Source: Bacillota bacterium (GTDB taxonomy: Bacteria > Bacillota > Clostridia > Christensenellales > CAG-138). Taken from it: a DNA stretch of 64,000 bases. The number at the start of each line of letters is the position of its first letter. The first letter of the stretch is position 1. The stretch lies in NCBI GenBank assembly GCA_023399275.1, contig JAEWQH010000009.1, positions 2,489 through 66,488 of the forward strand. Reading direction: 5' to 3'. Below, piece after piece: positions 17,256 to 31,309 of the stretch. The translations under genes and the position numbers were made by a program. Under the pieces are notes generated by a model. The model was not told where the DNA came from. It searched no databases and saw only the letters and a list, made by a program, of their open reading frames with translations.

Positions 17256-19346
17256 TCATGCGCCCGGCGGCGTCACCCAGGGCTTGCTCCCGTCGTTGTA
17301 GACGGGGTCGTCAACGCCCGGCACGAGGTCGGATGTGCCCCAGAACAGCCCATCCGTCCACGGACGCTGCACATCGCTGCCGATGCCGCTGTGCTGCGAC
17401 AGGCTTTCGCCCATGAAGATCATGGCGGTCGAGGCCCCTCCATCGAGGTTATAGGCAACCCGGCAGCCATACAGGTAGAAGAGCTGCGTAAACTCCTGCA
17501 GCGTCATGCCAACGCTGTGATCCTTTTGCCGCCCGTCTACGGTGATCGCGATAAAGTAACCCGGTTCGACCATGCCGAGGCCGCTTCTGGGATTCGCGCG
17601 CTCAAGGTTGCTGCGGCTCGTACTCTTGCCGCGCACGCCGTCGTTGAGCAGCGTCGGCCCAAACGAAAACGTATTGAGCACGCCCTGCGCAAGCAGTTCT
17701 TCGGCGGAGATCGTTCCTGGTTTATAGATCCGGATCGTGAGCTCATCCGGATCAAACGCCATGATATCCTCCGCCTGATTGCGACTGTAGACCTTGCCGT
17801 TGCGCATCAGTATGCCCTTTTGGTCCACCTCCGCCTGAATCAGGTTGTCCCCCGTGATGCCGAGCACCGCGCGGTAGCGCCGCGCCATTCGCCAGGCGTG
17901 CTCAAGCCCCGGCTGGGCCAGTGGGTTATCGTTTCGCACCCCGGCAAAGAAGGCGTCCTCCCCGCGCATGCGGATCTGCGCAACGCAGCAGGTGATCGGC
18001 TCGCCGCTCGCCCGGGTGAGGTGAATGCGGTCTATGAGGATGGAGAGCGTGTCCGAGCGGTACGCCCAGTGCTCGTTTTCGGGGTCGTTTACGACCACCT
18101 CCTGCGGGTCATCCCCGCTGCGGAAATACGCATCCCATGGATCGGGTGTCGGCGTCGGCTCCGCGGATGCGGTCGCCGTGGGTGTCGCCGTCGGCCCGGG
18201 CGTAAGCGCAGGCGCGGGCGACTCTACCCCTTCTGCCGCTCCATCCAGCCGGCCGCGCGCCGTAAGAACCAGCGCCGCAGCCAGGCAGAGCGCGCAGGCG
18301 GCGATCGCCGCGCGTCGAAGCAACGCGCGCCGCCAAAGGAGAATGGCCGCGGCAAGGGCCGCAACGGCGAGCACGCCTAGAACGGCCGCCGTGGTCGGAC
18401 GCGGACTCGCCTCCTCCCGGGCAATGCCGGCCTCTGCGTACGGCAAGCCGTCCGCAGAGGGTTCCTCCGGCGCGGGCGTCGGCGTTTTCACCGGCTCCGG
18501 CGTCGGCGAAACCATCGGCGTCGGCGACGCCGTGGGGCCGAGAAGCGCCGCATCCAGCCCGTCGAACAGGTCGCCGGATGTCGGATCAAACGCGGATTCA
18601 TCCGCGGCGAAGGCGAGGCCGTACTGCGCGCTTGTATAGCCCGGCCCGTCGCTGATCTCGATCGGGTATGTCTCCGGATAGTACGCGTACCCTTGCCGGT
18701 CGAGCGCCAGCGCATTCAACCCATCAAAACGCTCGAGCGGCCGGGTGCGGTCGATCACCACCGGTGCATCGCCGTATTGGTGCGAAAAAAGCCGCAGCAC
18801 CTGCCACGCGCCATACAGCTCCGCGCTCTGCGGATACCGCGTCGCCTCATCGGTGTAGCGCACAGCCTGCACCGTGCAGCTCGATGCAACGATATGCGCA
18901 CCGTGCCCGTACTCGCCCTGCGCATCGTGCGTAAGCACGACGGCGGGCCGATACTGGCGGATGACGCCGACGAGATACGTCGTCACCGCACGGCTGTCCC
19001 AGTAGAGCAGCGCCTCACGCTCCGTACTGGTGTAGACGGAGGAAAACGAGCCAAAGACAGCGCGCACGCGATCCCCAAAGCGCGCGAGCGCGTCCCTCGC
19101 CGCCTGCCGCTGCGCCGCGCCGTCGCTCGAGAGATAGACGACCACGGCGGAGCGCCCCTGTTCCCCGGCATACAGCGGCAGCGCGCCGCCGAGAAAGAGA
19201 TACTCGTCCCCGGGATGCGCGCAGACGATCATGAGGTCCACGCCACCCTGCGCGGATGTGGACTCCGCCGCTCCCGCCGAGGGCGTGAGAAAAAGGGCTC
19301 CCAAAACGACCGCCGCACTCAGGGCGGCCAAGAGTTTTTTTCGCAT
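17256..19346 (-). CDS. Bifunctional-looking envelope protein: N-terminal PIG-L/LmbE-type deacetylase + TM pair + C-terminal phosphodiester glycosidase (NAGPA/DUF2233-like)
   Basis: ORF trimmed to the ATG at 19346 (MRKKLLAALSAAVVLGA…, signal-like). Contains VCAHPGDEYLFLGG and HDAQGEYGHGAH (PIG-L motifs), P/T/A-rich linkers, two central hydrophobic helices, and a C-terminal …ITVDGRQ…YNLDGGASTAMIF… region. Confidence 0.7.
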   Translation of the reverse strand: MRKKLLAALSAAVVLGALFLTPSAGAAESTSAQGGVDLMIVCAHPGDEYLFLGGALPLYAGEQGRSAVVVYLSSDGAAQRQAARDALARFGDRVRAVFGSFSSVYTSTEREALLYWDSRAVTTYLVGVIRQYRPAVVLTHDAQGEYGHGAHIVASSCTVQAVRYTDEATRYPQSAELYGAWQVLRLFSHQYGDAPVVIDRTRPLERFDGLNALALDRQGYAYYPETYPIEISDGPGYTSAQYGLAFAADESAFDPTSGDLFDGLDAALLGPTASPTPMVSPTPEPVKTPTPAPEEPSADGLPYAEAGIAREEASPRPTTAAVLGVLAVAALAAAILLWRRALLRRAAIAACALCLAAALVLTARGRLDGAAEGVESPAPALTPGPTATPTATASAEPTPTPDPWDAYFRSGDDPQEVVVNDPENEHWAYRSDTLSILIDRIHLTRASGEPITCCVAQIRMRGEDAFFAGVRNDNPLAQPGLEHAWRMARRYRAVLGITGDNLIQAEVDQKGILMRNGKVYSRNQAEDIMAFDPDELTIRIYKPGTISAEELLAQGVLNTFSFGPTLLNDGVRGKSTSRSNLERANPRSGLGMVEPGYFIAITVDGRQKDHSVGMTLQEFTQLFYLYGCRVAYNLDGGASTAMIFMGESLSQHSGIGSDVQRPWTDGLFWGTSDLVPGVDDPVYNDGSKPWVTPPGA

Positions 19347-19606
19347 CGGCTTCTCCAGACAAATCCATCCTCTGCGCACGGCGCGGCAAAAAGCCGCCGC
19401 AGCTCCGGCTGATATGCTACCTATTATAGCAGAAAACCCTGCGCGCGCGTTTTTCACCTCACTCCGTGAGAACCGCCGCTTTGCAAAGCGCGGCGCCCCC
19501 GCAGGCCGCCCCCAGGCGGCATCCAACCCGACGGATACGGGCGAAGGAATTGCACTCGGGTCCGCTAAGGCGTATACTGTTGCTATTCTTGGTTGGAGAG
19601 AAATGC

Positions 19607-20578
19607 ATGCTCTATTCTTTGTTTTCGGTTTCCTACGACGTCCGCTGGGTGCTCGCCAGCGTTTTTGCCTCGTTTATTCTCACGTTTTTTGCCATCCGGA
19701 TCGGCATCGGCCGCTTACCCAAGGATCAGGGCAGAAAATACGCCGTCAACAGCGAGCTATCCAAGGGCAAACCGCGCGGTGCGGGCCTGATCTTCAGCAT
19801 CTGTGTCGTTGCCGTGTTCCTCGTGTTTGTTCCGTTTCGTTGGGAATACGTCGTCTACTGCGCGCTGTTCCTGCTCTCGATGCTCTCGGGGTATCTGGAC
19901 GACCGCAGCGTCCAGTCCTGGAGCGAGCTGCGAAAGGGACTGCTCGACCTCGCCATCTGCCTTGCAGCGGCGGGCACATATCTGCTCTTTAACGAGTCGC
20001 ACAGTCTCGCGCTCTTCGGCTGGACGCTCGTGCTGCCCAAGTGGGCGTTTCTGATCGTCGCCACATTTGTTCTCTGGATCTCGATCAACTTCACCAATTG
20101 TACGGACGGCGTGGACGGCCTGCTCGGCTCGGTTTCCGCCGTTTCGATGGCCACCTTTGCCGCCATCTTCCTGCTCATGGGCGGCTCGCTCGACCTCGCG
20201 CAGATGTGCTTTGTATTCATCGGCTCGCTTCTGGCATACCTGGCATTCAACGCTTCGCCAAGCCAGATCATCATGGGCGACGCGGGTTCGCGCACCATCG
20301 GCATCTTCCTTGGCGTGATGGCGCTCAAGACGTATAACCTGCTCTATTTTATCCCCGCCGTGCTGGTGATCGTCCTCGACGGCGGCATCGGGCTGTTTAA
20401 GCTGCTGTTCATCCGGTTGACGAAGATCAAGGGCTTTCTCAAGTCCGTCCGCACCCCGCTGCACGATCACGCCCGCAAGAACATGGGCTGGTCGGACACG
20501 CAGGTGGGCGTGCGCTTCTCGATCCTTCAGCTGCTCGTCAGCGGCCTTTGCATCGCGGCGCTGCTGCTGCGCCGCTGA
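19607..20578 (+). CDS. MraY/WecA-superfamily polyprenyl-phosphate sugar-phosphate transferase (MraY paralog)
   Basis: ORF trimmed to the ATG at 19607 (MLYSLFSVSY…) after GGAGAG. Motifs GYLDD, NFTNCTDGVDGL, MGDAGSR and PLHDH are in the order seen in MraY-type enzymes. Confidence 0.75.
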   Translation: MLYSLFSVSYDVRWVLASVFASFILTFFAIRIGIGRLPKDQGRKYAVNSELSKGKPRGAGLIFSICVVAVFLVFVPFRWEYVVYCALFLLSMLSGYLDDRSVQSWSELRKGLLDLAICLAAAGTYLLFNESHSLALFGWTLVLPKWAFLIVATFVLWISINFTNCTDGVDGLLGSVSAVSMATFAAIFLLMGGSLDLAQMCFVFIGSLLAYLAFNASPSQIIMGDAGSRTIGIFLGVMALKTYNLLYFIPAVLVIVLDGGIGLFKLLFIRLTKIKGFLKSVRTPLHDHARKNMGWSDTQVGVRFSILQLLVSGLCIAALLLRR

Positions 20579-20583
20579 CGCAC

Positions 20584-20613
20584 GAAGCCGCCCGGCCAGG
20601 GGCGGCTTTTTTG
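20584..20613. terminator. Rho-independent terminator (bidirectional position)
   Basis: GAAGCCGCCC-GGCCAG-GGGCGGCTTTTTTG. Confidence 0.8.
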
Positions 20614-20665
20614 TCTGTCAACCGACGTGTCTTTTGTGGGCGGTATATGCCCGCCCGGGCGACGC

Positions 20666-21544
20666 CTAATAGAACTGCGGGCGGCGCGTCATCCTGCCTT
20701 TCATCTGCGGCAAATAGAACAACTCCCGCTCGATACGCATGACCGCCAGCCTGTCGATGCGATAGTTTCGAACCGCCGTATCCTCGTTCACTTCAAAAAA
20801 TTCACTCCAGCGTGCTTCGCTGGCGTTCGGATCCTGATAGGACGGCAAGACGTAGCCAATCTGCGCTTGCTCGCCGCGCAGGAGGCAGGCGAAGATGGAA
20901 TATCCGCTGTTGTCTGCGATGTATGCGCCCTGCTCCGTGGGGTTCGACTGCAGCAGCACGGCGCGCAGGCCCGCCCCTTTCACGATCTCAAACCACTCCG
21001 TCTCGGAAACCACGCCTGCAAGCCGGCTGGCAAGCGCGAGCAGCTCCGGTTCCTCTCCTGCGCAAACGGGGTCTTGCTCCCCCGCCTTCGGCTGCGCGGC
21101 TATCCGCTTCGCTTCCTGCGAGTCGTTTTGCGCCGCCATCCGTTCCAGCGCGACCGAATCGATCCGCAGATGCGCATCCCTCGGCCAGGCGACCTGTTCA
21201 ACGCGGAGCGGGGCGCGAACAGCGATTCCGTCCCGCAAGGAGTCGGCGATCTTGCCAAGCTGCCTCGTCTGGCGGGCGCGCTCATGCGCAGCTTTCGAAA
21301 CGGCGATCGCAACCCACATCAGCGCGGCGACCCCTATCACCGCAAGCACCAGCGCGGCGAGCGACATCCATTTCTCCCCCAGGATTATAACGCCGAGATG
21401 CAGCTCGTTCCCCGCGGATACATCCATACCCGATCCGCCTTGCCCGGATGGAATCCATCCCACAGCAAGCGTCCGCGAAACGGGGAGCACGCACAACGGC
21501 AGCGGCAAAAGCAGCGCAGCGAGCGCTTTCATTCTTCTTGTCAC
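20666..21544 (-). CDS. Hypothetical membrane-anchored protein (operon gene 5 of 5)
   Basis: 292 aa. GTG start 5 nt after GGGAGG, with a GTGA overlap with the stop of the upstream gene. Has a signal-like N-terminus, one clear TM (WMSLAALVLAVIGVAALMWVAIAV), and a ~200-aa domain I do not recognise. Confidence 0.6.
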   Translation of the reverse strand: MTRRMKALAALLLPLPLCVLPVSRTLAVGWIPSGQGGSGMDVSAGNELHLGVIILGEKWMSLAALVLAVIGVAALMWVAIAVSKAAHERARQTRQLGKIADSLRDGIAVRAPLRVEQVAWPRDAHLRIDSVALERMAAQNDSQEAKRIAAQPKAGEQDPVCAGEEPELLALASRLAGVVSETEWFEIVKGAGLRAVLLQSNPTEQGAYIADNSGYSIFACLLRGEQAQIGYVLPSYQDPNASEARWSEFFEVNEDTAVRNYRIDRLAVMRIERELFYLPQMKGRMTRRPQFY

Positions 21545-24500
21545 AAATGCCTCCCTTCGTGGTCCCGGAGCATGCTCAAGGCGTCCTGCAGATACTTATC
21601 GCCGACAGCCTCCAGCGCATTCAGAAAATATCCGTATTTTTTCGGCTTGGCCCCGATGATGCCGTCCACCCCCGGAAGGGTCAACACCGCCGGGTCGTAT
21701 TCATTCGCCCCAAAGCGCCAACCATAGCTCGTCTCTGCCACAACGCGAAACGCTTTTATATACGACGAAACCATATCCGGATCGGTGCATATCTCTATTT
21801 GTCTATATTGCGTCGCCTGATAGGCGGGAAGCTCCGCCGTCTGCTCCAGATTCGGCTCGAATATCGCCTGATTCGTTGCGCCTGCAACAAAGTATTCATT
21901 CGGCACGCTTTGCAGCGCCCCAAACGCTACCTCTTCCTTCGGCCTCTGCGAAAAGCGGCAAACGAACCGCTCGTCGGGTATGTTCAGTTTGCTTGCTCTC
22001 TGAAACAGAAGGCGGATAAAGTGTACCGTCCGCTTGACATCCGGCGTAATCCAACGAACGATCTTCGATCCGTTTCCTGCAAGCAGCATCGAGATCTGCA
22101 GGTTGTCATCTTCCCAATCGAACATCACGGCCGAAAGCCAAACCACCGCGCCGAGATAGAACGCGATCCGCTTTTTGATCACCGAAAACCCCGGAGCGTC
22201 CTGCTCGTATTGCTCTCGAAAAGTCAGGTTTTCCGCGTCGTTCGCGCATCGGTTCATAAATGCTTCCCCCAGATTTGCGGGCTGCAAGGCCGCCGCCGGG
22301 TTCGACGGGTCGCGCGGGATGCGAATGGAGAACAGATCCTCGATCAGGCTATCGCTGTTTCGGGCGGAAAAAGCCTGGATATATTGATCTGGGTTGCGAA
22401 TGACCGTCCTCAAGTTCTCACCGGATTCTCTCATGAGTTTGCGCAGGAAGAAAAAATCCGCCGCACTGAGCGTCTCCAGCAGGATCTTGCGCGCGCCGAA
22501 CGCCAGCGATGCGGCCACCGAGTTTCTCGGTCTGTTTGTACCTTCCTGGCTGATGTAGAGATCTGTCGATCCGCCGCCGATGTCCATGATGAAGTAATTC
22601 TGGTTGAAGCTCTCTTGCTGCACGGAATAGCGAAACGCAGCTTCGCTCTCCGTCAGGCACGTGATCTGCTGAGCGACGGCTGTCGCATGAGGTGCAACCG
22701 CCTCGGCCTGCTGCGGACTCTGCAGCAAAACACCGGTCGATTGGCAGACCGTCATCAGCATGGAATTGAGCGTGTTGAAGTACGACACCCGCATGTTTTC
22801 GTCAAACGCCAGCGGATATGTCGCCGTAAGGGCGATGCTGGCGCAGCCGCGGCAGCGCGCCTCCAGCGCAAGCATCGTCAATAACTGCGTCAGAATTGCA
22901 CAGGTGCGATGCCCGTTCGTCTGATCCGACCGCTGCCACTTGAGGTCGGAGCAAAGCACCGGCCATTTCTCCGGTTCTCGCGCCTCAACAAATGCGCGAA
23001 AATAGATCCAGCTATCGCGAAACACGCGCCGCGGCTGATCCCCGGCGCCGGCATCCGCCAGAATAGTCTGCATCGGCATGCAGGAAGGGTACCGTGCCGC
23101 GCACTGCGGATCCTCCTCCAGCTGCCGGAAGGAATCCTGCGCGTGCAGGGTTCGGCGCCTTACGAAACCCGCTTGGTCCTTCGGCAGATGCAGCGGGGGA
23201 AAGAAATACTTCTCCAGACGCGATGTATCGCGCCCCTCGCTGTCCGCCGCGTTCATCAGCGGCAAGCTCCACAGGTGCACGCCGTCGATCCGAAAAGCGG
23301 CATCGCCATCGATGCTGGCGTAGAGCGTGGTGGCGGACGTTCCGAAGTCAATTGCCGCGTGAAATACTCGCTCGGGCCTGCCCGCCGGGATTTCAGGCCG
23401 CGGACGGATCTGCAGATACCCGATCAGCTGATCATCCTTGCGCAGGGCGCATCGCTCAGGCGCGCTGGAAAGCCGGCTATACAGCAAGGTCCCGTCCGCC
23501 CCATCCTCTTTCGTGTACTGCTTTGCCGGGGTTGCGGCGCTTGGCTCCGACGGCTCCAGCCGATAGCCGTTGATTTCGTCACAGAAGAAATAGTACTCTC
23601 CCCAGCCCGCAATCCTCTGCCGCGGCCAGATCGCGGCGGTGCAGAGGTTTCGAAAGAGCTGGCTGTCGATCTGCGCCGCCAGGTACGTTTGCGTAAGATC
23701 GAGATCGCCCAGCGTGACCGTTACGGTGATGCCGTTGATCTCAACCCCGTTTTTCGAATATGTGGGGCAAATGCTGTAGTCCGGCTCAAGCGCAAGATTA
23801 TCCTCCCAAAGGCGCCAAAAAGTCTCCGTCACCGGTAGGGCTACGAAGAAGTGCGCCGTCTTTCCCTTCCCCAGATCATGGCTGACCAGGCATCTTGGCG
23901 CAATGCCCCCGGCGAACCGATTGGTGTCCAAAAGATTCGGCTGCTCCGACGCCTGATCGATCAACACATAGAACACCCGGTCAAGAAACAGGCGCAGACC
24001 CGTCGGCACGGACACTCCGTTGATCTGCAATCCAACCTGCTCCGCATCCTGCGAAAGAAACGCGCGGAGATTCGTCGTGCTTTGCATGTTCAGCCGGAAT
24101 GCGTCCGCAAGGGCTTTCTCGTAACCAAATATCAGGTCCATATTCTGCGCACCCGCATTCGCGTTCGCGCGGTAGTTTTTGAGCCAGCTGTATAGCAAAA
24201 GCGCATGCACCGGCAGCATGACGGGAGTCTCCTCCTCCGTCTGCTTGCGCATAAGCGGGTAAGCACGGCCTTCACGCTCCTCAACCGGAGCATGCACCTG
24301 CCGATCCGTCAGCCAGGGAATCCGATCCGGATAGACGAACCGAAGATTTCGCCAGGCATCCTTGGTCGGAACCACATGTACGCCCGGAGACGACATCGCG
24401 ATCGGATAGCGCACTCTGTCCGCCTCGACGTAGTAGATAATCATGCTCTCCCAGTCCGCGGCCTGTGGGCGGCTGTTGTACGCCGCGCGGAGATGGGCGC

Positions 24501-24846
24501 TGTAAACGGGATCCGCAAAGCGGATCGTCTGCGAATGGATCTCCACGCCGTAGGACTCCGCCAGCACCAGTATGGCGAGCATGGCGCGCCATTCGCGCCG
24601 GGCGATCTGCTCATACTCCAAATAGCTCGGATCCACCGCCGTGTTGAGCAGCAGCATCTCAAACAGGCGGTGCTGGCTCCAGATGTCCGGCACGGAGCTG
24701 ATCCGGCGAAAATCCGTCTGCTTCGGGCCCTCCTCCTGCCACGCGCTCGAGATGCGAAGCTCCTGGCCGATGTCATGCAGCTTCGAGACATCGCCGCTGA
24801 GGGCAGTATTGTTCGGATGGGACGAAAACCAGTGATAAAACGACAT
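21541..24846 (-). CDS. Large (~1101 aa) hypothetical protein with an Hsp70/actin-fold ATPase module in its C-terminal half (operon gene 4)
   Basis: ORF trimmed to the ATG at 24846 (MSFYHWFSSHP…) after GGAGGCAAGG. Motifs occur in actin-fold order: AAIDFGTSATT (23329..23361), MDIGGGSTD (22561..22587), LLAGNGSKI (22060..22086). I do not recognise the N-terminal ~490 aa. Confidence 0.65.
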   Translation of the reverse strand: MSFYHWFSSHPNNTALSGDVSKLHDIGQELRISSAWQEEGPKQTDFRRISSVPDIWSQHRLFEMLLLNTAVDPSYLEYEQIARREWRAMLAILVLAESYGVEIHSQTIRFADPVYSAHLRAAYNSRPQAADWESMIIYYVEADRVRYPIAMSSPGVHVVPTKDAWRNLRFVYPDRIPWLTDRQVHAPVEEREGRAYPLMRKQTEEETPVMLPVHALLLYSWLKNYRANANAGAQNMDLIFGYEKALADAFRLNMQSTTNLRAFLSQDAEQVGLQINGVSVPTGLRLFLDRVFYVLIDQASEQPNLLDTNRFAGGIAPRCLVSHDLGKGKTAHFFVALPVTETFWRLWEDNLALEPDYSICPTYSKNGVEINGITVTVTLGDLDLTQTYLAAQIDSQLFRNLCTAAIWPRQRIAGWGEYYFFCDEINGYRLEPSEPSAATPAKQYTKEDGADGTLLYSRLSSAPERCALRKDDQLIGYLQIRPRPEIPAGRPERVFHAAIDFGTSATTLYASIDGDAAFRIDGVHLWSLPLMNAADSEGRDTSRLEKYFFPPLHLPKDQAGFVRRRTLHAQDSFRQLEEDPQCAARYPSCMPMQTILADAGAGDQPRRVFRDSWIYFRAFVEAREPEKWPVLCSDLKWQRSDQTNGHRTCAILTQLLTMLALEARCRGCASIALTATYPLAFDENMRVSYFNTLNSMLMTVCQSTGVLLQSPQQAEAVAPHATAVAQQITCLTESEAAFRYSVQQESFNQNYFIMDIGGGSTDLYISQEGTNRPRNSVAASLAFGARKILLETLSAADFFFLRKLMRESGENLRTVIRNPDQYIQAFSARNSDSLIEDLFSIRIPRDPSNPAAALQPANLGEAFMNRCANDAENLTFREQYEQDAPGFSVIKKRIAFYLGAVVWLSAVMFDWEDDNLQISMLLAGNGSKIVRWITPDVKRTVHFIRLLFQRASKLNIPDERFVCRFSQRPKEEVAFGALQSVPNEYFVAGATNQAIFEPNLEQTAELPAYQATQYRQIEICTDPDMVSSYIKAFRVVAETSYGWRFGANEYDPAVLTLPGVDGIIGAKPKKYGYFLNALEAVGDKYLQDALSMLRDHEGRHL

Positions 24847-24871
24847 ATCCTTGCCTCCGTGTTCGTGTCCG

Positions 24872-26449
24872 TTACGCGCGCCGCACGCAGCACTCCGCCA
24901 AAGAAGAGACGAAATACGCAACTGCATGCTCGGGGTCTACGCGCGCCGAGTTCATCTGCGAGGTGATCCGCGCACAGGGGATGCCCAGCATATCACACGC
25001 GGTTGAACCTTCGCGCGCTACGCGCTGAATGGCCTGATAAATCAGCGGCGTGTTTCTCAGCACGTTACCCTCTATCTTCAGCAGTTCGTTCATGCCGTGG
25101 TGATCCAGCTCCTCCAGCCAGCGGAAGATCTGCTTCGTAAATGCCAGCGGCACGCCTACCCCCTCCGTTCGACTGTCATAGGTTTTGTGCAGGTTGCGCT
25201 GCCTGCCCCACACCGTGCGGAGCACCTCCGGCCGGTAATTCCACGGACACCGCCCGCTGACGCGGTAATAAACGCCCAGCATCAGGCAAAAGCGCTCCAG
25301 CCGGAGGATGTAATCCTGCACCGAGGCGATCCGCATCTCACCCGGCAGCCCGTGCGACGCCGGAAAAAACTCGAAACGGGTCAGCGGAAAAGCCGCTTCG
25401 GGAGGAATATCCAGCGTGGGATCGGAGTTGACCCATTTCAGCGGAACATAGACCTTGCTTTGCGCATCTGCCGATGCGGGCAGATCGCCGGCGAAATACC
25501 GGCAGATACCGATGGCCGCCATCAACTCCGCCGGCATGGACGGGTCGTCCTGCCCCTCGTGGTCCTCGCTGGCCCGGTCCAGCCGCACGCCGGCCCATGT
25601 GCCGTCCTCCTTTTTCTTTTCCATCTGCCGCCGGTCGTCGCCCACAAACTGTGCAAATTCCAGTTCGGAGAGCACATCGGACATCTCGTAGTACTTCAGC
25701 GCCATCTTGCTGTTGATGACAAACAATCCGCTGTCCACGTCGGTATCTCTCCCGATATCGAAGTAGGGCAGCATGAGCGTCAGCGCAACGCGCCTTGCAA
25801 ACGGCGCCGTCTCGGTATTGTTTTCGTTGCGGCAGGCGCGCACAAACCGCCGCGCCAGCGTCGGCGCTCCGCTCGCCCCCGTCCCGCCGAATACGGAGCC
25901 GACAAACATCACGCGCAGCTCATCCTGTGTGCTGATGCCGGAAAAGATCGATCTCCAGAACCCGCTCAGGTCGTTCCATTCCCGGTCGAACTGCTCCGCC
26001 CAGATCAGCGAGCCGATGCGCGGCCTGCCCTTGCAGCCCCGGCGCAGCTCCATCGCGCGGTCGTCCCCTCCAAACAGCGCATGAAACGCCAGCGCGTCCG
26101 GCCCCGTGAGGTAATCGTTTCCCACCAGATCGTCAAGCGTGCTGCGGTCGTTGATCGGCGTGGACAGTCTCTCCATCGCATCGATCCCCTTCGGCTTCCA
26201 GCAGGGGCGCTCGGCGTTTTCATCCACGATCACAGAAAGATAGGGAAGCGCTTCGTTGACGCTGCGAATCATCTCCTCCAGCTCAACCCGATCCCCGCCC
26301 GCTACGATGTCCAAATCCACAAGGCGGAGCTCCAGCTTGTACTCCGTCTGGCACAGGTCACTCAGGTACCCGCTCGCAGCCAATGCCACGAGAGACTGGG
26401 CAACGCGCATGCCGGAGCCGCCGATCGCCACCAGAACAAATTTCGTCAT
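24872..26449 (-). CDS. Divergent tubulin/FtsZ-superfamily GTPase-like protein (operon gene 3)
   Basis: ORF trimmed to the ATG at 26449 (MTKFVLVAIGGSGMRVA…) after GGGAGGGGAAGG. Three motifs: AIGGSGMRV (26402..26428), GCKGRPRIG (26012..26038), and GSVFGGTGASGAP (25862..25900), which resembles the tubulin signature GGGTGS/TG. Confidence 0.6.
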   Translation of the reverse strand: MTKFVLVAIGGSGMRVAQSLVALAASGYLSDLCQTEYKLELRLVDLDIVAGGDRVELEEMIRSVNEALPYLSVIVDENAERPCWKPKGIDAMERLSTPINDRSTLDDLVGNDYLTGPDALAFHALFGGDDRAMELRRGCKGRPRIGSLIWAEQFDREWNDLSGFWRSIFSGISTQDELRVMFVGSVFGGTGASGAPTLARRFVRACRNENNTETAPFARRVALTLMLPYFDIGRDTDVDSGLFVINSKMALKYYEMSDVLSELEFAQFVGDDRRQMEKKKEDGTWAGVRLDRASEDHEGQDDPSMPAELMAAIGICRYFAGDLPASADAQSKVYVPLKWVNSDPTLDIPPEAAFPLTRFEFFPASHGLPGEMRIASVQDYILRLERFCLMLGVYYRVSGRCPWNYRPEVLRTVWGRQRNLHKTYDSRTEGVGVPLAFTKQIFRWLEELDHHGMNELLKIEGNVLRNTPLIYQAIQRVAREGSTACDMLGIPCARITSQMNSARVDPEHAVAYFVSSLAECCVRRA

Positions 26450-26465
26450 ATGCCTTCCCCTCCCT

Positions 26466-27023
26466 TTAGCGCGTCGGATAGACCCGCTTGATCTTGTGAT
26501 CGATCCATCTGGACAGCGGCCAGCGCACGACGCAGTTGGTCGCCGGCACCGCATCCATGCAGATGCGCCAGAGCAGCACGCCGCACACAACAAAGACATA
26601 GTACGGCAGCCATAGCTTCAAAACGCTGTCGTTTGCATTGGGCAGCAGGATTCCGATCCAGTTTCCCGAAGACAGCGCATATCGATAGCCGGACATCGCA
26701 GCGGCGCAGACCACGATCAAAAACGCATTTATGATATTCTGCATCCGGGTGCGTGCAGACAGTCGCGGCCCAAAATCCCCTTTTTTCTCATTCACGATGA
26801 AAAAGACCAGATTCAGCAACCAAACAGCCGCGATGCCGCCGGCGTGAATCCAACGCGTCGCATCCGAAAACTGCTGCCCAATCCGCTGCGCCGCGTCGTC
26901 CAGGTAAAACACGCCTGTCAGCGCGGTGCGATACCAGACGGGCGGAAACAGCGCCAACACTGCGGCAGCCAGAAACGCCGTAATTGCGCGCAGTGCGACT
27001 CGTTTTCTGAAAGTTGCATCCAT
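26466..27023 (-). CDS. Small 4-TM membrane protein (operon gene 2)
   Basis: ORF trimmed to the ATG at 27023 (MDATFRKRVALRAITAFLAAAV…) after GGGAGG. 185 aa with four hydrophobic helices. Confidence 0.6.
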   Translation of the reverse strand: MDATFRKRVALRAITAFLAAAVLALFPPVWYRTALTGVFYLDDAAQRIGQQFSDATRWIHAGGIAAVWLLNLVFFIVNEKKGDFGPRLSARTRMQNIINAFLIVVCAAAMSGYRYALSSGNWIGILLPNANDSVLKLWLPYYVFVVCGVLLWRICMDAVPATNCVVRWPLSRWIDHKIKRVYPTR

Positions 27024-27045
27024 AGACAGCCTCCCTCGCTTTTCC

Positions 27046-28836
27046 TTACTGAATTCCGGTCTGAATCTGCTTTGCCTCCACAACGCTGAAAGCCCAGCCG
27101 CCAAAGTCTTCCGTCTCTTCCCACGTGGCTGAACTGAGGTATTTGCCCGGCACGTCGCGCACGACCATGCCGAACATCACCGTCTGAACGCACGCCTCCG
27201 TCTGATCCCGGATCGCTTCGTCTACCAGCGCGATCTGCCCGTCGGCAATCCCCCCGATGAGCAGGTTGGAAAGAAACGGCGTCCTGGCCGTGGTTGCATA
27301 GGTATATCGCGCGGAGGTCGTCGTTTGTCCGTCGCGAACAAACTCGCGGTCAAACGTCTTGAGGTTGAGCGTAAGCGCATTCACCCAATCGGTATCATAG
27401 AGCGCGTTGAGCGTTTCGCGCCGCGGCGTGACAGCGACGCGGACGCTGATCGTGCAAAGCAGCGGTTCATCCTTGGCAAGCTGCGCCGTATCGACCGAGA
27501 GCACGATCTCGATCGTCTCCCCCGCTTCGTCGATCACCGCGCTTTCGCAGCGCACCAGGGCGGTAGACGGCTCCACCCAGTCCGCCTCCGGCTGCGCGCC
27601 TGCGTTCTCACGATATGTCAGCATGCGAATCTGTGTCGTAACGGTGCAGTCCTCCCGTGAAAACGAAATCTGCCCTGCCGGCACTACCAGTCCGTATTTG
27701 TCGACTATGTCTTCGGCCTTCTCCAGGGAATCCGTCAGCGTAAACGGGACCGTACAGCGCACCTTCACGTTCTGTTCGCCGCTGCCGCGCTCAAGGTCGT
27801 AGATCTTGGCAATCGGAACGGCCTCCAGCAACCGCTGGTATGACTCGGGAACCTCCTCTGCGGAAGGGTAACGGATGGCACCCGCTTCATCCGCAAGGCC
27901 GCGCACGAGAAATTGCGCGGGATAGTCGGCCGCGTCATACTGCTGATATCCGAGGGAAAACGAAGCGAAGATGTCGTCCTTATCCCGGCGCGAAACCCCG
28001 TACTCGGAGAAAAACAGCGCATAATGCGGCGTGCTCTCATCGAGCAGCCCTCCGCTCTCCAGTGAGGCGAGCGCTTTTTGCATCGCGCCGAGTACCTGCC
28101 GGTCGTCCCCCATGAACAGCAGGTAGAGCGGATGGCGGAAGTTTCCGTCTGCGTCGCGCTCCTGCACCATATAGTCGCTGAGCTTTCGGGTGCGGCCAGT
28201 CGCAGGATTGACGGGCAGGTTCTCAATCGCGCCGCGAAACTCTCCCACGATGGCGATGATGCCGAGCGTCGCGTTTTCCGGCTGCAGCACCTTGCTGCGC
28301 AGCGCCGTGGCCGCTTTCACGCAGTCGTCCTCGGTCGGGATCATCAGATCCGAAATCAATATCATCAACCGGTCGGAACTTCGCTGGTAGCGCTTCGCCA
28401 TGGCCGTGATGACGGAAGCGATATCGTTGCTCTCTTCTTGAAAGAACGGTTCCTGAACGGCCTCCTGAAAAAATGGTTCGGTGGATTCATGCAGAGACGT
28501 GCCGTTTATGAGGAGTTCGCTCGCGCGCAGATAGGTGCACTCGGCGCCGATGCCGACGCTTGAAACGGCGCTGAGCGCGGCGCGATAGCTCATGCAATAC
28601 TGTGCGACAAAGCCCTTCATGCCAAATCCGTCGTCAACGACGATGTCGTATCGCACCTGCTCCGTCCGGTCTGACTGTGCCTTCGCAGATTGCGGTTCGA
28701 GCAAGTCCAGCCCCCCATACAGCGCTTCTGTCGGCTCCATGATCCCGTATGGCTCCGGTGTTTCCGGTTTTCCGCAGCCGTACAAAGCAAAACAGCCCAT
28801 GAGGCAGATCAGCACACATAGTAACGTCTTTTTCAT
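27046..28836 (-). CDS. Lipoprotein, ~596 aa, with a possible degenerate vWA-like N-terminal domain (operon gene 1)
   Basis: ORF trimmed to the ATG at 28836 (MKKTLLCVLICLMGCFALYGCGKPE…; lipobox LYGC) after GGGAGA. YDIVVDDGFGMKGF and DRLMILISDLMIP resemble vWA beta-1 and beta-4 strands, but the MIDAS DxSxS motif is absent. Confidence 0.55.
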   Translation of the reverse strand: MKKTLLCVLICLMGCFALYGCGKPETPEPYGIMEPTEALYGGLDLLEPQSAKAQSDRTEQVRYDIVVDDGFGMKGFVAQYCMSYRAALSAVSSVGIGAECTYLRASELLINGTSLHESTEPFFQEAVQEPFFQEESNDIASVITAMAKRYQRSSDRLMILISDLMIPTEDDCVKAATALRSKVLQPENATLGIIAIVGEFRGAIENLPVNPATGRTRKLSDYMVQERDADGNFRHPLYLLFMGDDRQVLGAMQKALASLESGGLLDESTPHYALFFSEYGVSRRDKDDIFASFSLGYQQYDAADYPAQFLVRGLADEAGAIRYPSAEEVPESYQRLLEAVPIAKIYDLERGSGEQNVKVRCTVPFTLTDSLEKAEDIVDKYGLVVPAGQISFSREDCTVTTQIRMLTYRENAGAQPEADWVEPSTALVRCESAVIDEAGETIEIVLSVDTAQLAKDEPLLCTISVRVAVTPRRETLNALYDTDWVNALTLNLKTFDREFVRDGQTTTSARYTYATTARTPFLSNLLIGGIADGQIALVDEAIRDQTEACVQTVMFGMVVRDVPGKYLSSATWEETEDFGGWAFSVVEAKQIQTGIQ

Positions 28837-29238
28837 TGAAATCTCCCATCGCATGGTGTCGCCAGCCCAGAAAGGAACGAGTCGGGGGATCGAATGGCAT
28901 CGGCGGGATAGGCACCGGATTTGCCCCATCGTAACATTGCGCGGCTACGCGCACAAGGCGTATAAAAACGCGCATTATTGGGTATTTCCCTCTCGACGAT
29001 CGATCCCATCCCGTCGCAGCGACCGATGAAAAGCCCCTTTGGCGCGATTTCGCCGGCCCGCAGCCCGCTGAAAACGACTGTTTATCGGCAGCCGCGCTTT
29101 GCCCGCCGCCCTTTGGACTGCCGGCAATCCAACGCGCGAAAATACCCTTCTTTGGGGGATAAGCCGTTGCGCCGGCAACGCCGGATTCCATTGATGAAAG
29201 CTGCCGGTCTCTACAATCCCAAGCCGTTTTTGACGCAT

Positions 29239-29274
29239 AAAGAGGGCCTCCGAACCAAATCGGAAGCCCTCTTT
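29239..29274 (-). terminator. Stem-loop downstream of the GH31 gene
   Basis: AAAGAGGGCCTCCGA-N6-TCGGAAGCCCTCTTT, a 15-bp stem with one mismatch. There is no clean U-tract on the minus strand. Confidence 0.5.
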
Positions 29275-29296
29275 GATGATCGATTGGGTCGCAGGC

Positions 29297-31309
29297 TCAG
29301 CGGATCTCGCGCAGCCGCTCCATCACCCGCGCAATTTCGCTGTCAGCGCGGTAAAACACCGGCGGCTCGCCGATGGGCGCGGCGATCGTGACCGCGCCGC
29401 CCCTGTATGACGCACCCGACCAGAGATGCACCCAGTCGTCCTGCGGCAGGTAGAGCATGCGCGTCTGCGCCGCCTCCTCCACGACGGGCGCCACGAGGAT
29501 ATCGCGCCCCAAGAGGTATTCATACGGCTCGGTATACGCCCGCGCGTCGTCGGGATAATGCAAAAACAGCGTCCGCATGGCAGGCAGACCCGTTTCGCAG
29601 TTCTCCGCGCCGAGGGAGACGAGGTAGAGCGAGAGCGCCCGGTGGATGCGGGAAAAGCGCGAAAAGAAGGCTATGGTTTCGTCATCCGCGTCAAACTGCG
29701 TGTTTTCGTCCGGCCGGTTGCCTTCGTGCGTGCGCATTACGGGCGTAAACGCCGCGAACTCGCAGCCGCGCAGCAGCAGCTCCTTTGTGCGGTATTTGCC
29801 AAACAGCGCGGTATAGCCGCCGATATCGAAGGTGAGCATGCCAAACCCGGTCATGCCTAGCGAGAGCGCGGCGTTGATCACGCTCGGCAGCCCGTCATCC
29901 GGCGAAAAATCGACAAACTGGTCACCGGAGAACATCAGCGGAGAGTATCTCTGCGTGCCGGTCGCGCCGGAGCGGGTATAGAAACCGATCTTGCCGAGCA
30001 TGCCGCTCTCCAGCAGCGCCTCGTAGTTGAGCTTTGCCCAGAGCGTGGGCCATTCGTTGTGCGCCGAGATCGCGCTCTGTCCGGAAAAGAGCACGCAGTT
30101 GGTCGGCAGGTATTCGCCGAAATCCACCATCCAGCCGCGCAGACCCAGCGCGATCATGTTCTCCCGGATCACGCTCTTGTACCAGGTGCAGGCGGCGGGG
30201 TTCGTCAGGTCTACAAAGCCGCTGTCGAACTCGCCAAAGTCGATCAGGTAGTCCGTTCCATCCTGCTTTTTGACGAAGAAACCACGCGCCTTCGCTTCAG
30301 CGAAGAGCACGCCGCCCTCGACGAGGTAGGGGTTGATGTAGCCCATCCAGGCGATTTTGCGCGCGTCGTTTGCCGCGATGTCCTCCCGCAGAGAAGGGTA
30401 CGTCTCGCTGTTCCAGCGCCAGTCCCACTGCAGGCGCTTGCCGAAGCTCGTGACGCGCTTGCCGACCCAATCCTGCGTCCAGACCGCTGAGACGGCTGTG
30501 TCCGCGGCAAGCATGCGCTCTAGCTTGCTGCGGCAGGCTTCGGAGCCGCCCTGCATGCCCAGCAGTATGCCGTTGAACATGTATTCCGGCAGCGGCGGCT
30601 GGCGGCCGACCAGCGCGGTGAGGTCGCCCAGCAGCGCCGGATAGCTCTCCTTTGCGCCTATGGTGAGTGAAAATGCGCTCTGCCAAAGGTGGAGTCCGTG
30701 GAATCCCGCGTGGGAGAAGTCCACCTCCGCATAGTCGTAGCCGTGCAGGTGCAGATAATACAGCCGCGAGGAGACAAACGTCGCCTCGGGGTAATACGTC
30801 GTCCAGTAGTCCCCGCCGCCGCCGTCGAGCTGGTCGGCAAGAAACGTTGTGAGCGTTTTTTTGTTTCGGCCGACGCCCTGCTCCATGGTGAAGATCGGGT
30901 AGTTCCTGCCACGCAGGTCGAGGCTCGAGAACTGCTCGCCCAGGCCATAGACGTGCTCGTCCGCCTCGGCGAACACCTTGAGCCACAGCCGGTTGTAACG
31001 CGGGCTGTCGCAGCAGCCGGAGACGTCCAGCCGGCCGCCCTGTTCACGCAGGGTGAGCGTAAACGCCGCGGCATGATAGTCCTTGTAGAGGCGGATGACA
31101 ATGCCGCCCTCATCCTGCACGGCGGTAAACGCCGAAAACGGGATGCGCTCGGCGATCTCGTCCGAGATATGAAAATTGCCGTGGTGCATATCGATCGTCT
31201 CGCTGCCCACGCCGAGATAGAGCATCGGCTCCGCCAGCGTGTGGCGCAGGATCAGCCTTCCGTCGTAAAAAAGCGAAAAGCCGGCTTCGGTTCGGTCGAG
31301 TTTGAGCAT
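29297..31309 (-). CDS. yihQ: GH31 glycoside hydrolase, YihQ-like sulfoquinovosidase
   Basis: 670 aa. As far as I recall the E. coli YihQ sequence, this protein is collinear with it: GNFHISD, YGLGEQFS, MEQGVGRNK, QDWVGKRVTSFGKRLQWDWRWN (30425..30475), GWMVDFGEYLP, MRTHEGNRP, PPVFYRADSE. Confidence 0.8.
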   Translation of the reverse strand: MLKLDRTEAGFSLFYDGRLILRHTLAEPMLYLGVGSETIDMHHGNFHISDEIAERIPFSAFTAVQDEGGIVIRLYKDYHAAAFTLTLREQGGRLDVSGCCDSPRYNRLWLKVFAEADEHVYGLGEQFSSLDLRGRNYPIFTMEQGVGRNKKTLTTFLADQLDGGGGDYWTTYYPEATFVSSRLYYLHLHGYDYAEVDFSHAGFHGLHLWQSAFSLTIGAKESYPALLGDLTALVGRQPPLPEYMFNGILLGMQGGSEACRSKLERMLAADTAVSAVWTQDWVGKRVTSFGKRLQWDWRWNSETYPSLREDIAANDARKIAWMGYINPYLVEGGVLFAEAKARGFFVKKQDGTDYLIDFGEFDSGFVDLTNPAACTWYKSVIRENMIALGLRGWMVDFGEYLPTNCVLFSGQSAISAHNEWPTLWAKLNYEALLESGMLGKIGFYTRSGATGTQRYSPLMFSGDQFVDFSPDDGLPSVINAALSLGMTGFGMLTFDIGGYTALFGKYRTKELLLRGCEFAAFTPVMRTHEGNRPDENTQFDADDETIAFFSRFSRIHRALSLYLVSLGAENCETGLPAMRTLFLHYPDDARAYTEPYEYLLGRDILVAPVVEEAAQTRMLYLPQDDWVHLWSGASYRGGAVTIAAPIGEPPVFYRADSEIARVMERLREIR

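Follow-up and report, generated by a model that had tools for sequence, protein, structure and literature searches.

Which task brings together, in one short block of bacterial genes, a relative of tubulin, a very large relative of Hsp70 and a lipoprotein? The question is raised by five neighbouring genes on contig JAEWQH010000009.1 of a Bacillota bacterium (Christensenellales, CAG-138; assembly GCA_023399275.1). We analysed a stretch of 64,000 nucleotides of this contig, hereafter the window, named the five genes gA to gE in their order on the minus strand, and compared them with relatives on fetched contigs, which carry labels such as L001. Tentatively, and with slightly less than even confidence, we read the locus as a membrane-anchored machine with two nucleoside triphosphatases (NTPases), whose three-protein core gA-gC-gD is conserved across phyla.

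Gene content and conservation of the locus

The block has a length of 8.2 kb, and its five genes, with the protein features and the promoter-like element described below, lie on the minus strand. gA (28836..27046, 596 aa) encodes a predicted lipoprotein whose vWA-like domain lies at the N-terminus and is followed by a long and variable C-terminal part, gB (27023..26466, 185 aa) a small polytopic membrane protein, gC (26449..24872, 525 aa) a predicted tubulin/FtsZ-fold GTPase belonging to a short clade akin to Pfam Tubulin_2, gD (24846..21541, 1101 aa) a giant ATPase with a predicted Hsp70 fold and gE (21544..20666, 292 aa) a single-pass membrane protein. The first four genes are separated by 22, 16 and 25 nt, the start of gE overlaps the stop of gD in a 4-nt GTGA, and a ribosome-binding site (RBS) of the GGGAG/GGAGG type is found 6–9 nt upstream of each of the five starts. 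These borders, spacers and signals had already been described in an earlier reading of the DNA letters alone (the sequence-only reading), and we found the five open reading frames (ORFs) at the same coordinates. The topology it had predicted was also recovered: gA carries a lipobox, four hydrophobic segments are seen in gB, gE shows a signal-like segment and a single transmembrane (TM) segment at residues about 60–83, and gC and gD have no TM segment. While the interpretation given in that reading is partly supported, its anatomy of the locus proved right in every respect that could be tested. Since dozens of other contigs contain homologues of all five ORFs in an unchanged order, we regard the five named ORFs as real genes. 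Scans of the five proteins and of their Gram-negative counterparts against Pfam, NCBIfam and PADLOC gave sub-threshold matches only, in agreement with the earlier statement that no family of known function can be named for any of the five, and a Walker A motif was found in none of them.

We defined a close clade by a gC identity of at least 30%. It comprises contigs L001–L029 from Christensenellaceae, Oscillospiraceae, other Clostridia and one metagenome-assembled genome of the Negativicutes. In every sufficiently long contig of this clade the order gA-gB-gC-gD-gE is kept, so that the co-occurrence in related genomes which the sequence-only reading had named as a check on its proposal is indeed observed. 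Where genes are absent, this coincides with contig ends, with the exception of L029, in which a small ORF is not matched by the gB profile.

The gA-gC-gD core extends much further, into six other phyla, and was detected in Ignavibacteria, Bacteroidales, Acidobacteriota, Alphaproteobacteria, Cyanobacteria, Calditrichia and Negativicutes, with Terracidiphilus, Bryobacteraceae, Brevundimonas, Phenylobacterium, Veillonellaceae, Phascolarctobacterium and some Selenomonadaceae among the carriers. In the other phyla a gA-family lipoprotein gene and a gene for a small protein with four TM segments lie upstream of the Tubulin_2 gene, and a gene for a gD-family protein of 1090–1250 residues lies downstream. 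Iterated profile searches showed gA, gC and gD to be homologous across phyla, and in the loci examined their linkage is obligate; gB and gE are conserved only in the Bacillota-lineage version. The families are large: at least 522 relatives of gC were counted in a scan with one genome per species, and the gD family comprises 1034 representatives of clusters at 50% identity when the limit is set at E ≤ 1e-3, and 398 when it is E ≤ 1e-10, most of them 1040–1350 aa long. Across the fetched loci 50 ORFs in first position are homologous to gA. The 25 ORFs homologous to gB all come from Bacillota loci and are always located between gA and gC. None of eight distant gD members examined has a Pfam family.

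Copies of the module are also carried by plasmids, namely the mobilizable 47.5-kb plasmid Cy782204 of Gloeothece verrucosa PCC 7822 (L091, NC_014503.1) and plasmids of three Picosynechococcus strains, among them PCC 7003 (L092, NZ_CP016476.1), and of Synechococcus NIES-970. A search of phage genomes gave no match to the module. On L091 and L092 it consists of the tubulin-like protein and a hypothetical protein of about 1100 aa, with a small protein encoded upstream; a putative gene of gA size lies on the opposite strand in the Gloeothece copy, and on the PCC 7003 plasmid the module is followed by genes for a prefoldin-domain and a TM2-domain protein.

Several lineages add further genes to the core. 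In Alphaproteobacteria this is a gene for a protein with SH3 and TonB_C domains. In L005 (8306–10684) it is a 553-aa MotA/ExbB-family protein, which finds its best matches among ZorA models, together with an OmpA-domain protein; the similarity to ZorA is weak, with a PADLOC E-value of 1.8e-8 and an NCBIfam score of 22.9 against a cut-off of 500 bits. Published cyanobacterial and Deinococcus operons of the FtsZ-like family FtsZl1 (PMC2875224) likewise end in genes for a membrane protein and a MotB/OmpA protein (B7 plus COG1360, or MotA/ExbB plus OmpA), and Tubulin_2 systems may repeatedly be joined by a stator-like pair of this kind. In Ignavibacteria, Bacteroidales and Calditrichia the core is accompanied by a true HSP70 and a TPR protein of about 1100 residues. 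In L036 (14046–18965) the gD gene is followed by a gene for a 520-aa HSP70 (PF00012, E 1e-76, checked in this contig) and then by one for a protein with TPR repeats. L067, L076 and L086 resemble it, with a third protein of about 720–1120 aa, the TPR repeats being noted in L036. Since a bona fide HSP70 gene directly follows gD, versions of this type hold two Hsp70-fold ATPases.

The tubulin-like protein gC

A phmmer search with gC returned about 45 unannotated close relatives and then 24 proteins annotated with PF13809 (Tubulin_2), at E-values from 3e-16 to 5e-6. The Pfam models Tubulin and FtsZ_C gave no match to gC. Both glycine-rich loops typical of the tubulin/FtsZ superfamily are present. 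The T1-type phosphate loop reads G10-G-S-G13 (26411..26422), with G10, G11 and G13 invariant among the 39 sequences of alignment A1. The T4 tubulin signature reads S185-V-F-G-G-T-G-A-S-G-A-P-T197 (25859..25897), and in the same 39 sequences S185, F187, G188, G189, T190, G191, A192, P196 and T197 are invariant. The family pattern of T4 is accordingly S-x-F-GGTGA-x-G-x-PT, the window copy showing GGSG in T1 and GGTGASG in T4.

Searching PDB sequences with the gC profile yielded one marginal match to CetZ, in which the T4 stretch aligns on the CetZ signature of 3zid. Because this match was marginal, the fold was settled by structure comparison. The AlphaFold2 model of gC has a predicted local distance difference test score (pLDDT) of 82 and a predicted template modelling score of 0.89. 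All 50 Foldseek matches listed from the PDB are tubulins, gamma-tubulin, CetZ, OdinTubulin, BtubAB or PhuZ, with probabilities of 0.96–1.0 and E-values of about 1e-3 to 1e-2; the alignments span some 280 columns, corresponding to the GTPase domain. TM-scores of these matches are low (about 0.2–0.3); the likeness to tubulin observed is therefore confined to the GTPase domain, and the C-terminal 200 residues of gC lie outside of it. Judged by its model, gC has the tubulin/FtsZ fold with conserved GTP loops, as had been supposed from the letters alone.

Two further residues, Q300 and E308, are invariant and located just before and at the start of a helix at residues 306–320. By their position they are a candidate for the T7/H8 catalytic element. 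The longest helix predicted in gC has about 26 residues, and the C-terminal region is compact, with no long coiled coil.

In about 36 loci of Selenomonadaceae and Quinella (within L030–L087, e.g. L035, L041 and L046) we also noted a tubulin-like paralogue of about 461 aa, which matches residues 4–271 of gC only. It occurs in varying contexts without gA-type or gD-type neighbours and probably represents another undescribed Tubulin_2 sub-family.

The Hsp70-like protein gD

The C-terminal half of gD is, as judged from its model and motifs, an Hsp70-type nucleotide-binding domain with intact catalytic motifs (residues about 490–1000, 21847..23379). Foldseek returned 237 PDB matches at E ≤ 1e-3, headed by the nucleotide-binding domains of DnaK, BiP, Hsc70, mortalin and Ssz1 (E 4e-6, probability 1.0) and followed by ParM, and a library of viral structures gave the Hsp70 homologues of closteroviruses and giant viruses. 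The phosphate-1 motif D500-F-G-T503 (23338..23349) has D500, G502 and T503 invariant in alignments A2 and A3. In the phosphate-2 motif D755-I-G-G-G-S-T-D762 (22561..22584), which aligns on DLGGGTFD of BiP, D755, G757–G759 and D762 are invariant. The connect motif T-E733-S-E-A-A resembles NEPTAAA and contains Glu733, invariant across phyla; the adenosine motif G924-N-G-S (G924-x-G-S in the family) is invariant as well.

Sequence searches point in the same direction. A PDB sequence search with gD gave 75 matches, and all 60 of those listed are Hsp70, MreB or FtsA proteins, the listed matches covering only the phosphate-2 region of the nucleotide-binding domain. Relatives show weak matches to HscA, DnaK and MreB; the Pfam HSP70 model gave no match to gD at E ≤ 1. 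Taken together, gD is nearer to Hsp70 than to FtsA or actin.

The remainder of the protein is less familiar. Its N-terminal region (residues 1–489, 23380..24846) contains S51-x-P-D-x-W56, invariant across phyla in alignment A2, and gave neither a structure match in the PDB or the viral library nor a sequence match. No match to an Hsp70 substrate-binding domain, i.e. a beta-sandwich with a helical lid, was found in gD, and what follows the nucleotide-binding domain consists of helices alone. The alignment used for structure prediction of gD was shallow, since a mixed-phylum search mostly found the close clade again and only one new distant protein (P0119).

The lipoprotein gA and the membrane proteins gB and gE

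The N-terminus of gA reads MKKTLLCVLICLMGCFALYG-C with a hydrophobic segment at residues 4–22, and the lipobox cysteine Cys21 (LYG-C, 28774..28776) is near-invariant among the 23 homologues from several phyla in alignment A4. On this basis gA is a predicted bacterial lipoprotein. Residues about 58–262 (28051..28665) form a domain with a degenerate metal ion-dependent adhesion site (MIDAS), DDGFGM, and a conserved ISDL strand; in Gram-negative relatives the domain reads (strand)-D-x-[ST]-x-S-M-x-G-[FY]...(strand)-T-D-L. With its profile A5, Plasmodium TRAP/SSP2 was matched in its vWA domain at E 0.0022, and the I-domains of integrin alpha-1 at E about 0.06 (all vWA/I-domain matches, E 0.002–0.09); in these alignments the MIDAS residues coincide, D-x-[ST]-x-S of the family with DxSxS and vTDL with vTDG. 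Since the Pfam VWA models do not match gA, we call the domain vWA-like rather than a proven vWA domain. gA is probably the vWA partner typical of FtsZ-like operons.

The intact site DxSxS...T...D is not present in the window copy of gA, which has D-D-G-F-G at residues about 66–72 (28621–28641). L001 has DDGSGM and L021 DDGQGM, whereas L029 and all Gram-negative relatives have D-x-[ST]-x-S-M. With the MIDAS serines gone, metal-dependent ligand binding by gA may have been lost in the sub-lineage of the window.

Among PDB sequences, profiles A4 and A5 matched best to 6mtz_A (HepC.19480.a.B1, E 4e-4), an uncharacterised structural-genomics entry, which aligns with gA on the TDL-strand region and may be a solved relative of the lipoprotein domain.

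Outside the Bacillota loci the slots of gB and gE hold proteins of similar topology with no detectable homology. The small four-TM protein at the position of gB in Gram-negative loci reached an hhalign probability of 1% against gB, and gB and gE together gave 1–2% against the Gram-negative proteins at the same positions, so that cross-phylum homology of both was rejected. gE has a conserved cytoplasmic C-terminal domain of about 210 residues, in which W184, Y231 and P234 are invariant (alignment A6). Most of the 15 aligned gE homologues are 416–505 aa long and carry an ectodomain of about 190 residues between signal peptide and TM segment. The 292-aa gE of the window has no such ectodomain; its signal-like segment passes almost directly over to the TM helix, an arrangement that suggests loss in frame. 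The two reductions in the window copy, of the gE ectodomain and of the gA MIDAS serines, deserve attention.

Comparison with described systems

A literature search for systems combining a tubulin-like, an Hsp70-like and a vWA protein returned only PMC2875224 and PMC7159879 and no account of the present operon, with most subscription journals outside its coverage. The first of these describes FtsZl1 proteins as roughly 1000 aa long, with a domain resembling FtsZ at the N-terminus, a coiled coil and an alpha-helical C-terminal domain, and lists vWA, OmpA-like, GTPase, kinase and "B1-B9" families as partners in predicted membrane remodelling (PMC2875224). The members considered here are about 760–1210 aa long (763–1208 in the neighbourhood table), most of them having a coiled coil, and the table entries considered include one neighbour annotated as Hsp70 (amb2961) and one annotated as GrpE (Cagg_1315). 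FtsZl2, the PFL_1302 type, is proteobacterial, about 725 aa long and not linked to other genes (PMC2875224). A 2023 survey equates the Pfam Tubulin_2 model with these FtsZ-like proteins of Makarova and Koonin (PMC9871819).

The module shares with FtsZl1 a divergent tubulin/FtsZ-fold GTPase with GGxG and GGTG loops next to a vWA-type protein (probable in the case of gA) and membrane proteins, MotA/ExbB and OmpA/MotB-like genes often nearby, a patchy distribution across bacterial phyla with an ordinary FtsZ elsewhere in the genome, and a function that is only predicted. It differs in that gC has 525 aa and a compact C-terminal region with no long coiled coil, and in that a giant Hsp70-like partner, a small 4-TM protein and a gE-type protein are not among the listed FtsZl1-associated families. 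Like gC, FtsZl2 is a divergent tubulin-fold GTPase that lacks a coiled coil and has a C-terminal region of mixed alpha/beta type; gC, however, is shorter, comes from a Bacillota lineage and is always found in an operon. The sequence-only reading had brought up membership in FtsZl1 or FtsZl2. Of this, the relationship stands, with gC linked to Tubulin_2 by sequence and gA as the probable vWA partner, whereas neither of the two published architectures fits. On sequence grounds gC is related to the Tubulin_2 superfamily and belongs to neither family as published.

The second publication deals with conflict systems built on paired TRAFAC-clade GTPases (DO-GTPase/GAP1-N2), GAP1 and FNIII-repeat proteins; tubulin with vWA, and HSP70 with GrpE, DnaJ or TPR components, appear there as themes that do not overlap (Kaur et al. 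2020, PMC7159879). Common features with the module are a tubulin-fold protein together with an extracytoplasmic or membrane vWA (here vWA-like) protein, or an HSP70 lacking the peptide-binding domain together with TPR or DnaJ, and predicted NTP-dependent assemblies close to the membrane. The window proteins, in contrast, have no Walker A motif and no match to a P-loop or GTPase family that would mark a TRAFAC GTPase, and here the tubulin-fold and Hsp70-fold genes are adjacent in one operon.

The likeness of gD to Hsp70/DnaK extends to the phosphate-1, phosphate-2 and adenosine motifs and the catalytic Glu of the nucleotide-binding domain, and some phyla have a true HSP70 gene immediately downstream of the gene for the giant gD-family protein. 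gD differs by lacking a match to the substrate-binding domain, by the 490-residue unmatched region before the nucleotide-binding domain and by the helical extension after it. An echo of FtsZ and FtsA, which the sequence-only reading had perceived, holds at the level of the folds: a tubulin-fold GTPase gene stands next to an actin/Hsp70-superfamily ATPase gene, and both products would be tied to the membrane. It ends there, for gD has more in common with Hsp70 than with FtsA or actin and has 1101 aa compared with roughly 400 aa in FtsA, the locus lies outside a division or cell-wall cluster, gC is without the C-terminal domain of FtsZ, and FtsZ_C and FtsA gave no match above threshold. A paralogous FtsZ/FtsA pair was rejected on account of the genomic context and the Hsp70-like character of gD. 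A likeness to Zorya is limited to the L005 version, whose ZorA-like MotA/ExbB protein and OmpA protein suggest an envelope-sensing stator; the window has neither a MotA/ExbB nor an OmpA gene and no effectors of the ZorC/ZorD type, and PADLOC and NCBIfam found no ZorA or ZorB among its proteins. An SrfB-like virulence factor was considered too and rejected, since there is no Pfam match.

The locus is best filed among the predicted membrane-associated systems with vWA and FtsZ-like (Tubulin_2) proteins, as an undescribed version distinguished by the obligate pairing of a short tubulin-fold GTPase with a giant Hsp70-fold ATPase.

Possible function

In the proposed machine gA would sit at the outer face of the cytoplasmic membrane and, together with the gE ectodomain where present, would bind a ligand or sense a change of wall or membrane outside. 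gB and gE, which would tie the core to the membrane in the Bacillota lineage, would relay the signal across it and hold gC at the inner face. gC would then assemble in a GTP-dependent manner, with Gln300...Glu308 as candidate catalytic element, and gD would run an Hsp70-like ATP cycle on the gC assembly and assemble, reshape or dismantle it, its N-terminal region being the presumed client-binding part. The output would be a local change of the envelope or a threshold-type switch. The TonB-like or MotA/OmpA additions in diderms fit a machine that reaches across the envelope, and the addition of a true Hsp70 and a TPR protein fits a chaperone-type cycle. Precedents for the theme have been reported, as membrane remodelling was predicted for operons that combine vWA and FtsZ-like proteins (PMC2875224) and tubulin, vWA and HSP70 were described as assembling components of predicted conflict systems (PMC7159879). 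The trans-envelope role in remodelling or defence that had been suggested from the letters alone is consistent with the evidence as a predicted function.

A number of observations weigh against this reading. The Pfam Tubulin_2 model scores gC at 14.4 bits (E 0.023), below its gathering threshold of 27. GTP-dependent polymerisation of gC is hypothetical, proposed by analogy, and the authors who described the related FtsZl1 family doubted that it forms conventional filaments (PMC2875224). The model of gD is of moderate confidence (pLDDT 68), and its N-terminal half is without an assigned fold. The vWA assignment of gA rests on motifs and PDB E-values of 0.002–0.06, with no match to Pfam VWA, and the loss of the gA MIDAS serines together with that of the gE ectodomain makes outward sensing less obvious in the window copy. 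A recognisable effector domain (nuclease, protease, TIR or pore-former) was found in none of the five proteins, and the neighbouring genes are annotated as "hypothetical protein" in NCBI, UniRef and JGI. The genomic context is mixed, some copies lying near recombinases or toxin-antitoxin genes and the window and its closest relatives lying among housekeeping genes.

The last two points bear directly on a role in defence against phages or plasmids, in which the envelope parts would detect infection as ZorAB does in Zorya and the NTPase assembly would block the invader or kill the cell. We consider this possible, though unlikely. It would explain why the module is patchy across phyla and borne by plasmids, and it is in keeping with the use of tubulin, vWA and HSP70 in predicted conflict systems (PMC7159879) and with the ZorA-like and OmpA proteins of L005, although the ZorA-like match is far below the family cut-off. 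One copy is found beside two serine recombinases and GmrSD, another beside a Gp49/HTH toxin-antitoxin pair, an AEP-helicase and a transposase fragment, and a further one beside DNA methylase, FRG and SNase genes. The operon also changes quickly: relative to L001 the neighbouring Glycos_transf_4 protein is 78% identical, while gC reaches 65%, gA 54%, gD 47%, gB 39% and gE 38%. These identities indicate that the operon diverges faster than its neighbour, its membrane and exposed parts changing more quickly. On the other hand, neither the window proteins nor the Gram-negative core proteins gave a significant PADLOC match, and the lack of a recognisable effector domain and of phage-genome matches speaks against defence as well. 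At least four Christensenellaceae genomes including the window have the operon at one chromosomal position, followed by the same convergent Glycos_transf_4 gene and differing on the upstream side; in one Oscillospiraceae contig it lies between arginine-biosynthesis genes and galK. Housekeeping genes flank the copies in L060, L074, L084 and L090, as they do where flanks were sampled in Terracidiphilus, Brevundimonas and Phascolarctobacterium. Since the sampled flanks are mixed, they give no consistent defence-island signal.

The same stable synteny, beside a glycosyltransferase of the MraY/WecA family and a PIG-L/NAGPA protein, speaks for an accessory or housekeeping cytoskeleton that remodels membrane or wall, e.g. 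in vesicle formation, envelope repair or shape, with gC as a tethered filament and gD as its chaperone or partner filament. So do the housekeeping flanks in several phyla, a G+C content equal to that of the flanks, the combination of membrane anchors with two folds typical of force-generating filaments, and the published hypothesis for vWA plus FtsZ-like operons (Makarova and Koonin, PMC2875224). A patchy and plasmid-borne distribution would be unusual for a core function in cell biology, however, and gD is more like Hsp70 than like actin, MreB or FtsA; moreover, conservation across phyla does not extend to the membrane partners gB and gE, and the window copy is without the gE ectodomain and the gA MIDAS serines. 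We consider this explanation rather doubtful. We rank envelope surveillance or conflict a little higher than routine remodelling of the membrane, a preference that the data do not settle. An apparatus for surface adhesion or secretion, with the vWA lipoprotein as adhesin or ligand binder and the NTPases powering export, positioning or turnover, appears improbable. Adhesion or peptide binding is a common task of vWA domains, the diderm versions come with energy transducers (TonB_C, or MotA/ExbB with OmpA), and after one Clostridia locus a 1333-aa protein is encoded that has InlB-type B-repeats, but the MIDAS of gA is degenerate in the window, and the block has no gene for a secretion ATPase, secretin, sortase or pilin. 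We know of no tubulin-fold or Hsp70-fold NTPase that drives lipoprotein export. Least credible, by a wide measure, is a DNA-segregation cassette of the TubZ/ParM type left behind by a plasmid or prophage. TubZ/PhuZ and ParM do appear among the structural matches and the module does occur on plasmids, yet the partners found here, a lipoprotein and membrane proteins, do not fit, gD exceeds ParM threefold in size and most resembles Hsp70, neither a TubR/ParR-type adaptor gene nor centromere-like repeats were noted, and the window has no mobile-element genes and the module no phage-genome match. As an assignment for the operon this cassette was rejected, in view of the missing adaptor gene and the membrane partners.

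Returning to the membrane-anchored machine with two NTPases, gA-gC-gD would represent an undescribed and widespread class, an obligate pair of a tubulin-fold and an Hsp70-fold protein under a vWA lipoprotein, distinct from FtsZl1/FtsZl2, DO-GTPase systems and FtsZ/FtsA and with a new immune (abortive) or membrane-remodelling output; the chances that this broader proposal is correct seem to us evenly balanced. A sizeable sub-branch of Tubulin_2 comes with fixed partners, namely a vWA-type lipoprotein and a giant Hsp70-fold ATPase family of about 400 to 1,000 clusters, the latter having neither a Pfam model nor a functional name in the libraries and annotations checked. We are not aware of an experimental study on any member of the Tubulin_2/FtsZ-like branch; the literature found is limited to its use as an outgroup or to computational prediction. 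A conserved pairing of the two folds at the membrane is relevant to the recruitment of cytoskeletal and chaperone NTPases for envelope functions, and to the question whether such assemblies serve bacterial immunity, as comparative genomics has proposed. Since the module is compact and present in cultured strains (the Picosynechococcus and Gloeothece plasmids, Terracidiphilus gabretensis and Brevundimonas), genetics and phage-challenge work are feasible.

Transcription signals and neighbouring genes

A promoter-like element is located about 90 nt upstream of gA (28956..28928), with a -35 box TTGTGC (28956–28951), a spacer of 17 nt and an extended -10 box TGtTACGAT (28936–28928); the transcription start predicted from it lies near 28921. 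With 8 of 12 matches to the consensus it falls below the cut-off of 9 of 12 used in the promoter scan, and it was recovered by cross-genome alignment instead: the same arrangement of -35 and TGn-10 boxes and the RBS block GCGATGGGAGATT are kept upstream of gA in L001 and L088 (alignment A7). Further upstream a minus-strand hairpin at about 29241..29273, read as AGAGGGCTTCCGA...TTCGGAGGCCCTCT and followed by TTTAT, separates the GH31 gene from the operon. Between the convergent gE and Glycos_transf_4 genes lies a G+C-rich hairpin (20584..20609) with a 10-bp stem, 7 G-C pairs and a T-run on the plus strand, which is likely to be the shared terminator of both. Inside the block 14 terminator-like hits were counted, a modest excess over the 8.4 ± 2.9 expected from shuffled sequence, with weak stems of 5–8 bp. 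From the bracketing hairpins, the weak internal terminators and the conserved promoter-like element we infer that the five genes form one transcription unit, a conclusion drawn from the DNA and well supported at that level. An Rfam scan of 20000–30000 gave two sub-threshold matches only, to a Burkholderia small RNA and a eukaryotic internal ribosome entry site, which were taken as chance.

Plus-strand ORFs of 366–478 aa overlap the operon in antisense (20627–21727, 21448–22884 and 25097–26491). Long opposite-strand ORFs are typical of high-GC coding DNA, and since the window has about 60% G+C we regard them as probably spurious.

The flanks are as the sequence-only reading had described them, with no mobile-element genes within the window. 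Upstream of the operon lie the GH31 gene and a gene of the Na/sulfate-symporter family; downstream, the convergent Glycos_transf_4 gene for the MraY/WecA-family glycosyltransferase is followed by the gene for the PIG-L/NAGPA protein. In three Christensenellaceae loci syntenic with the window, L001 (17347–20743), L088 (15927–22165) and L089 (17620–22328), we noted a slot between a BD-FAE esterase and an FTHFS gene, whose contents differ: one contains a Cap4 nuclease, another a UDG fused to SocA/Panacea together with a radical-SAM protein and the third a DUF4365 protein. This slot, a few kb away from the operon, looks like a small variable defence hotspot. The PIG-L/NAGPA gene of the window (17256–19526, minus strand) encodes a 756-aa fusion of a PIG-L deacetylase domain and a NAGPA phosphodiester glycosidase domain. 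It adjoins both the Glycos_transf_4 gene and a gene for a Cache/HAMP histidine kinase, and the three genes may constitute a locus for a cell-surface glycopolymer.

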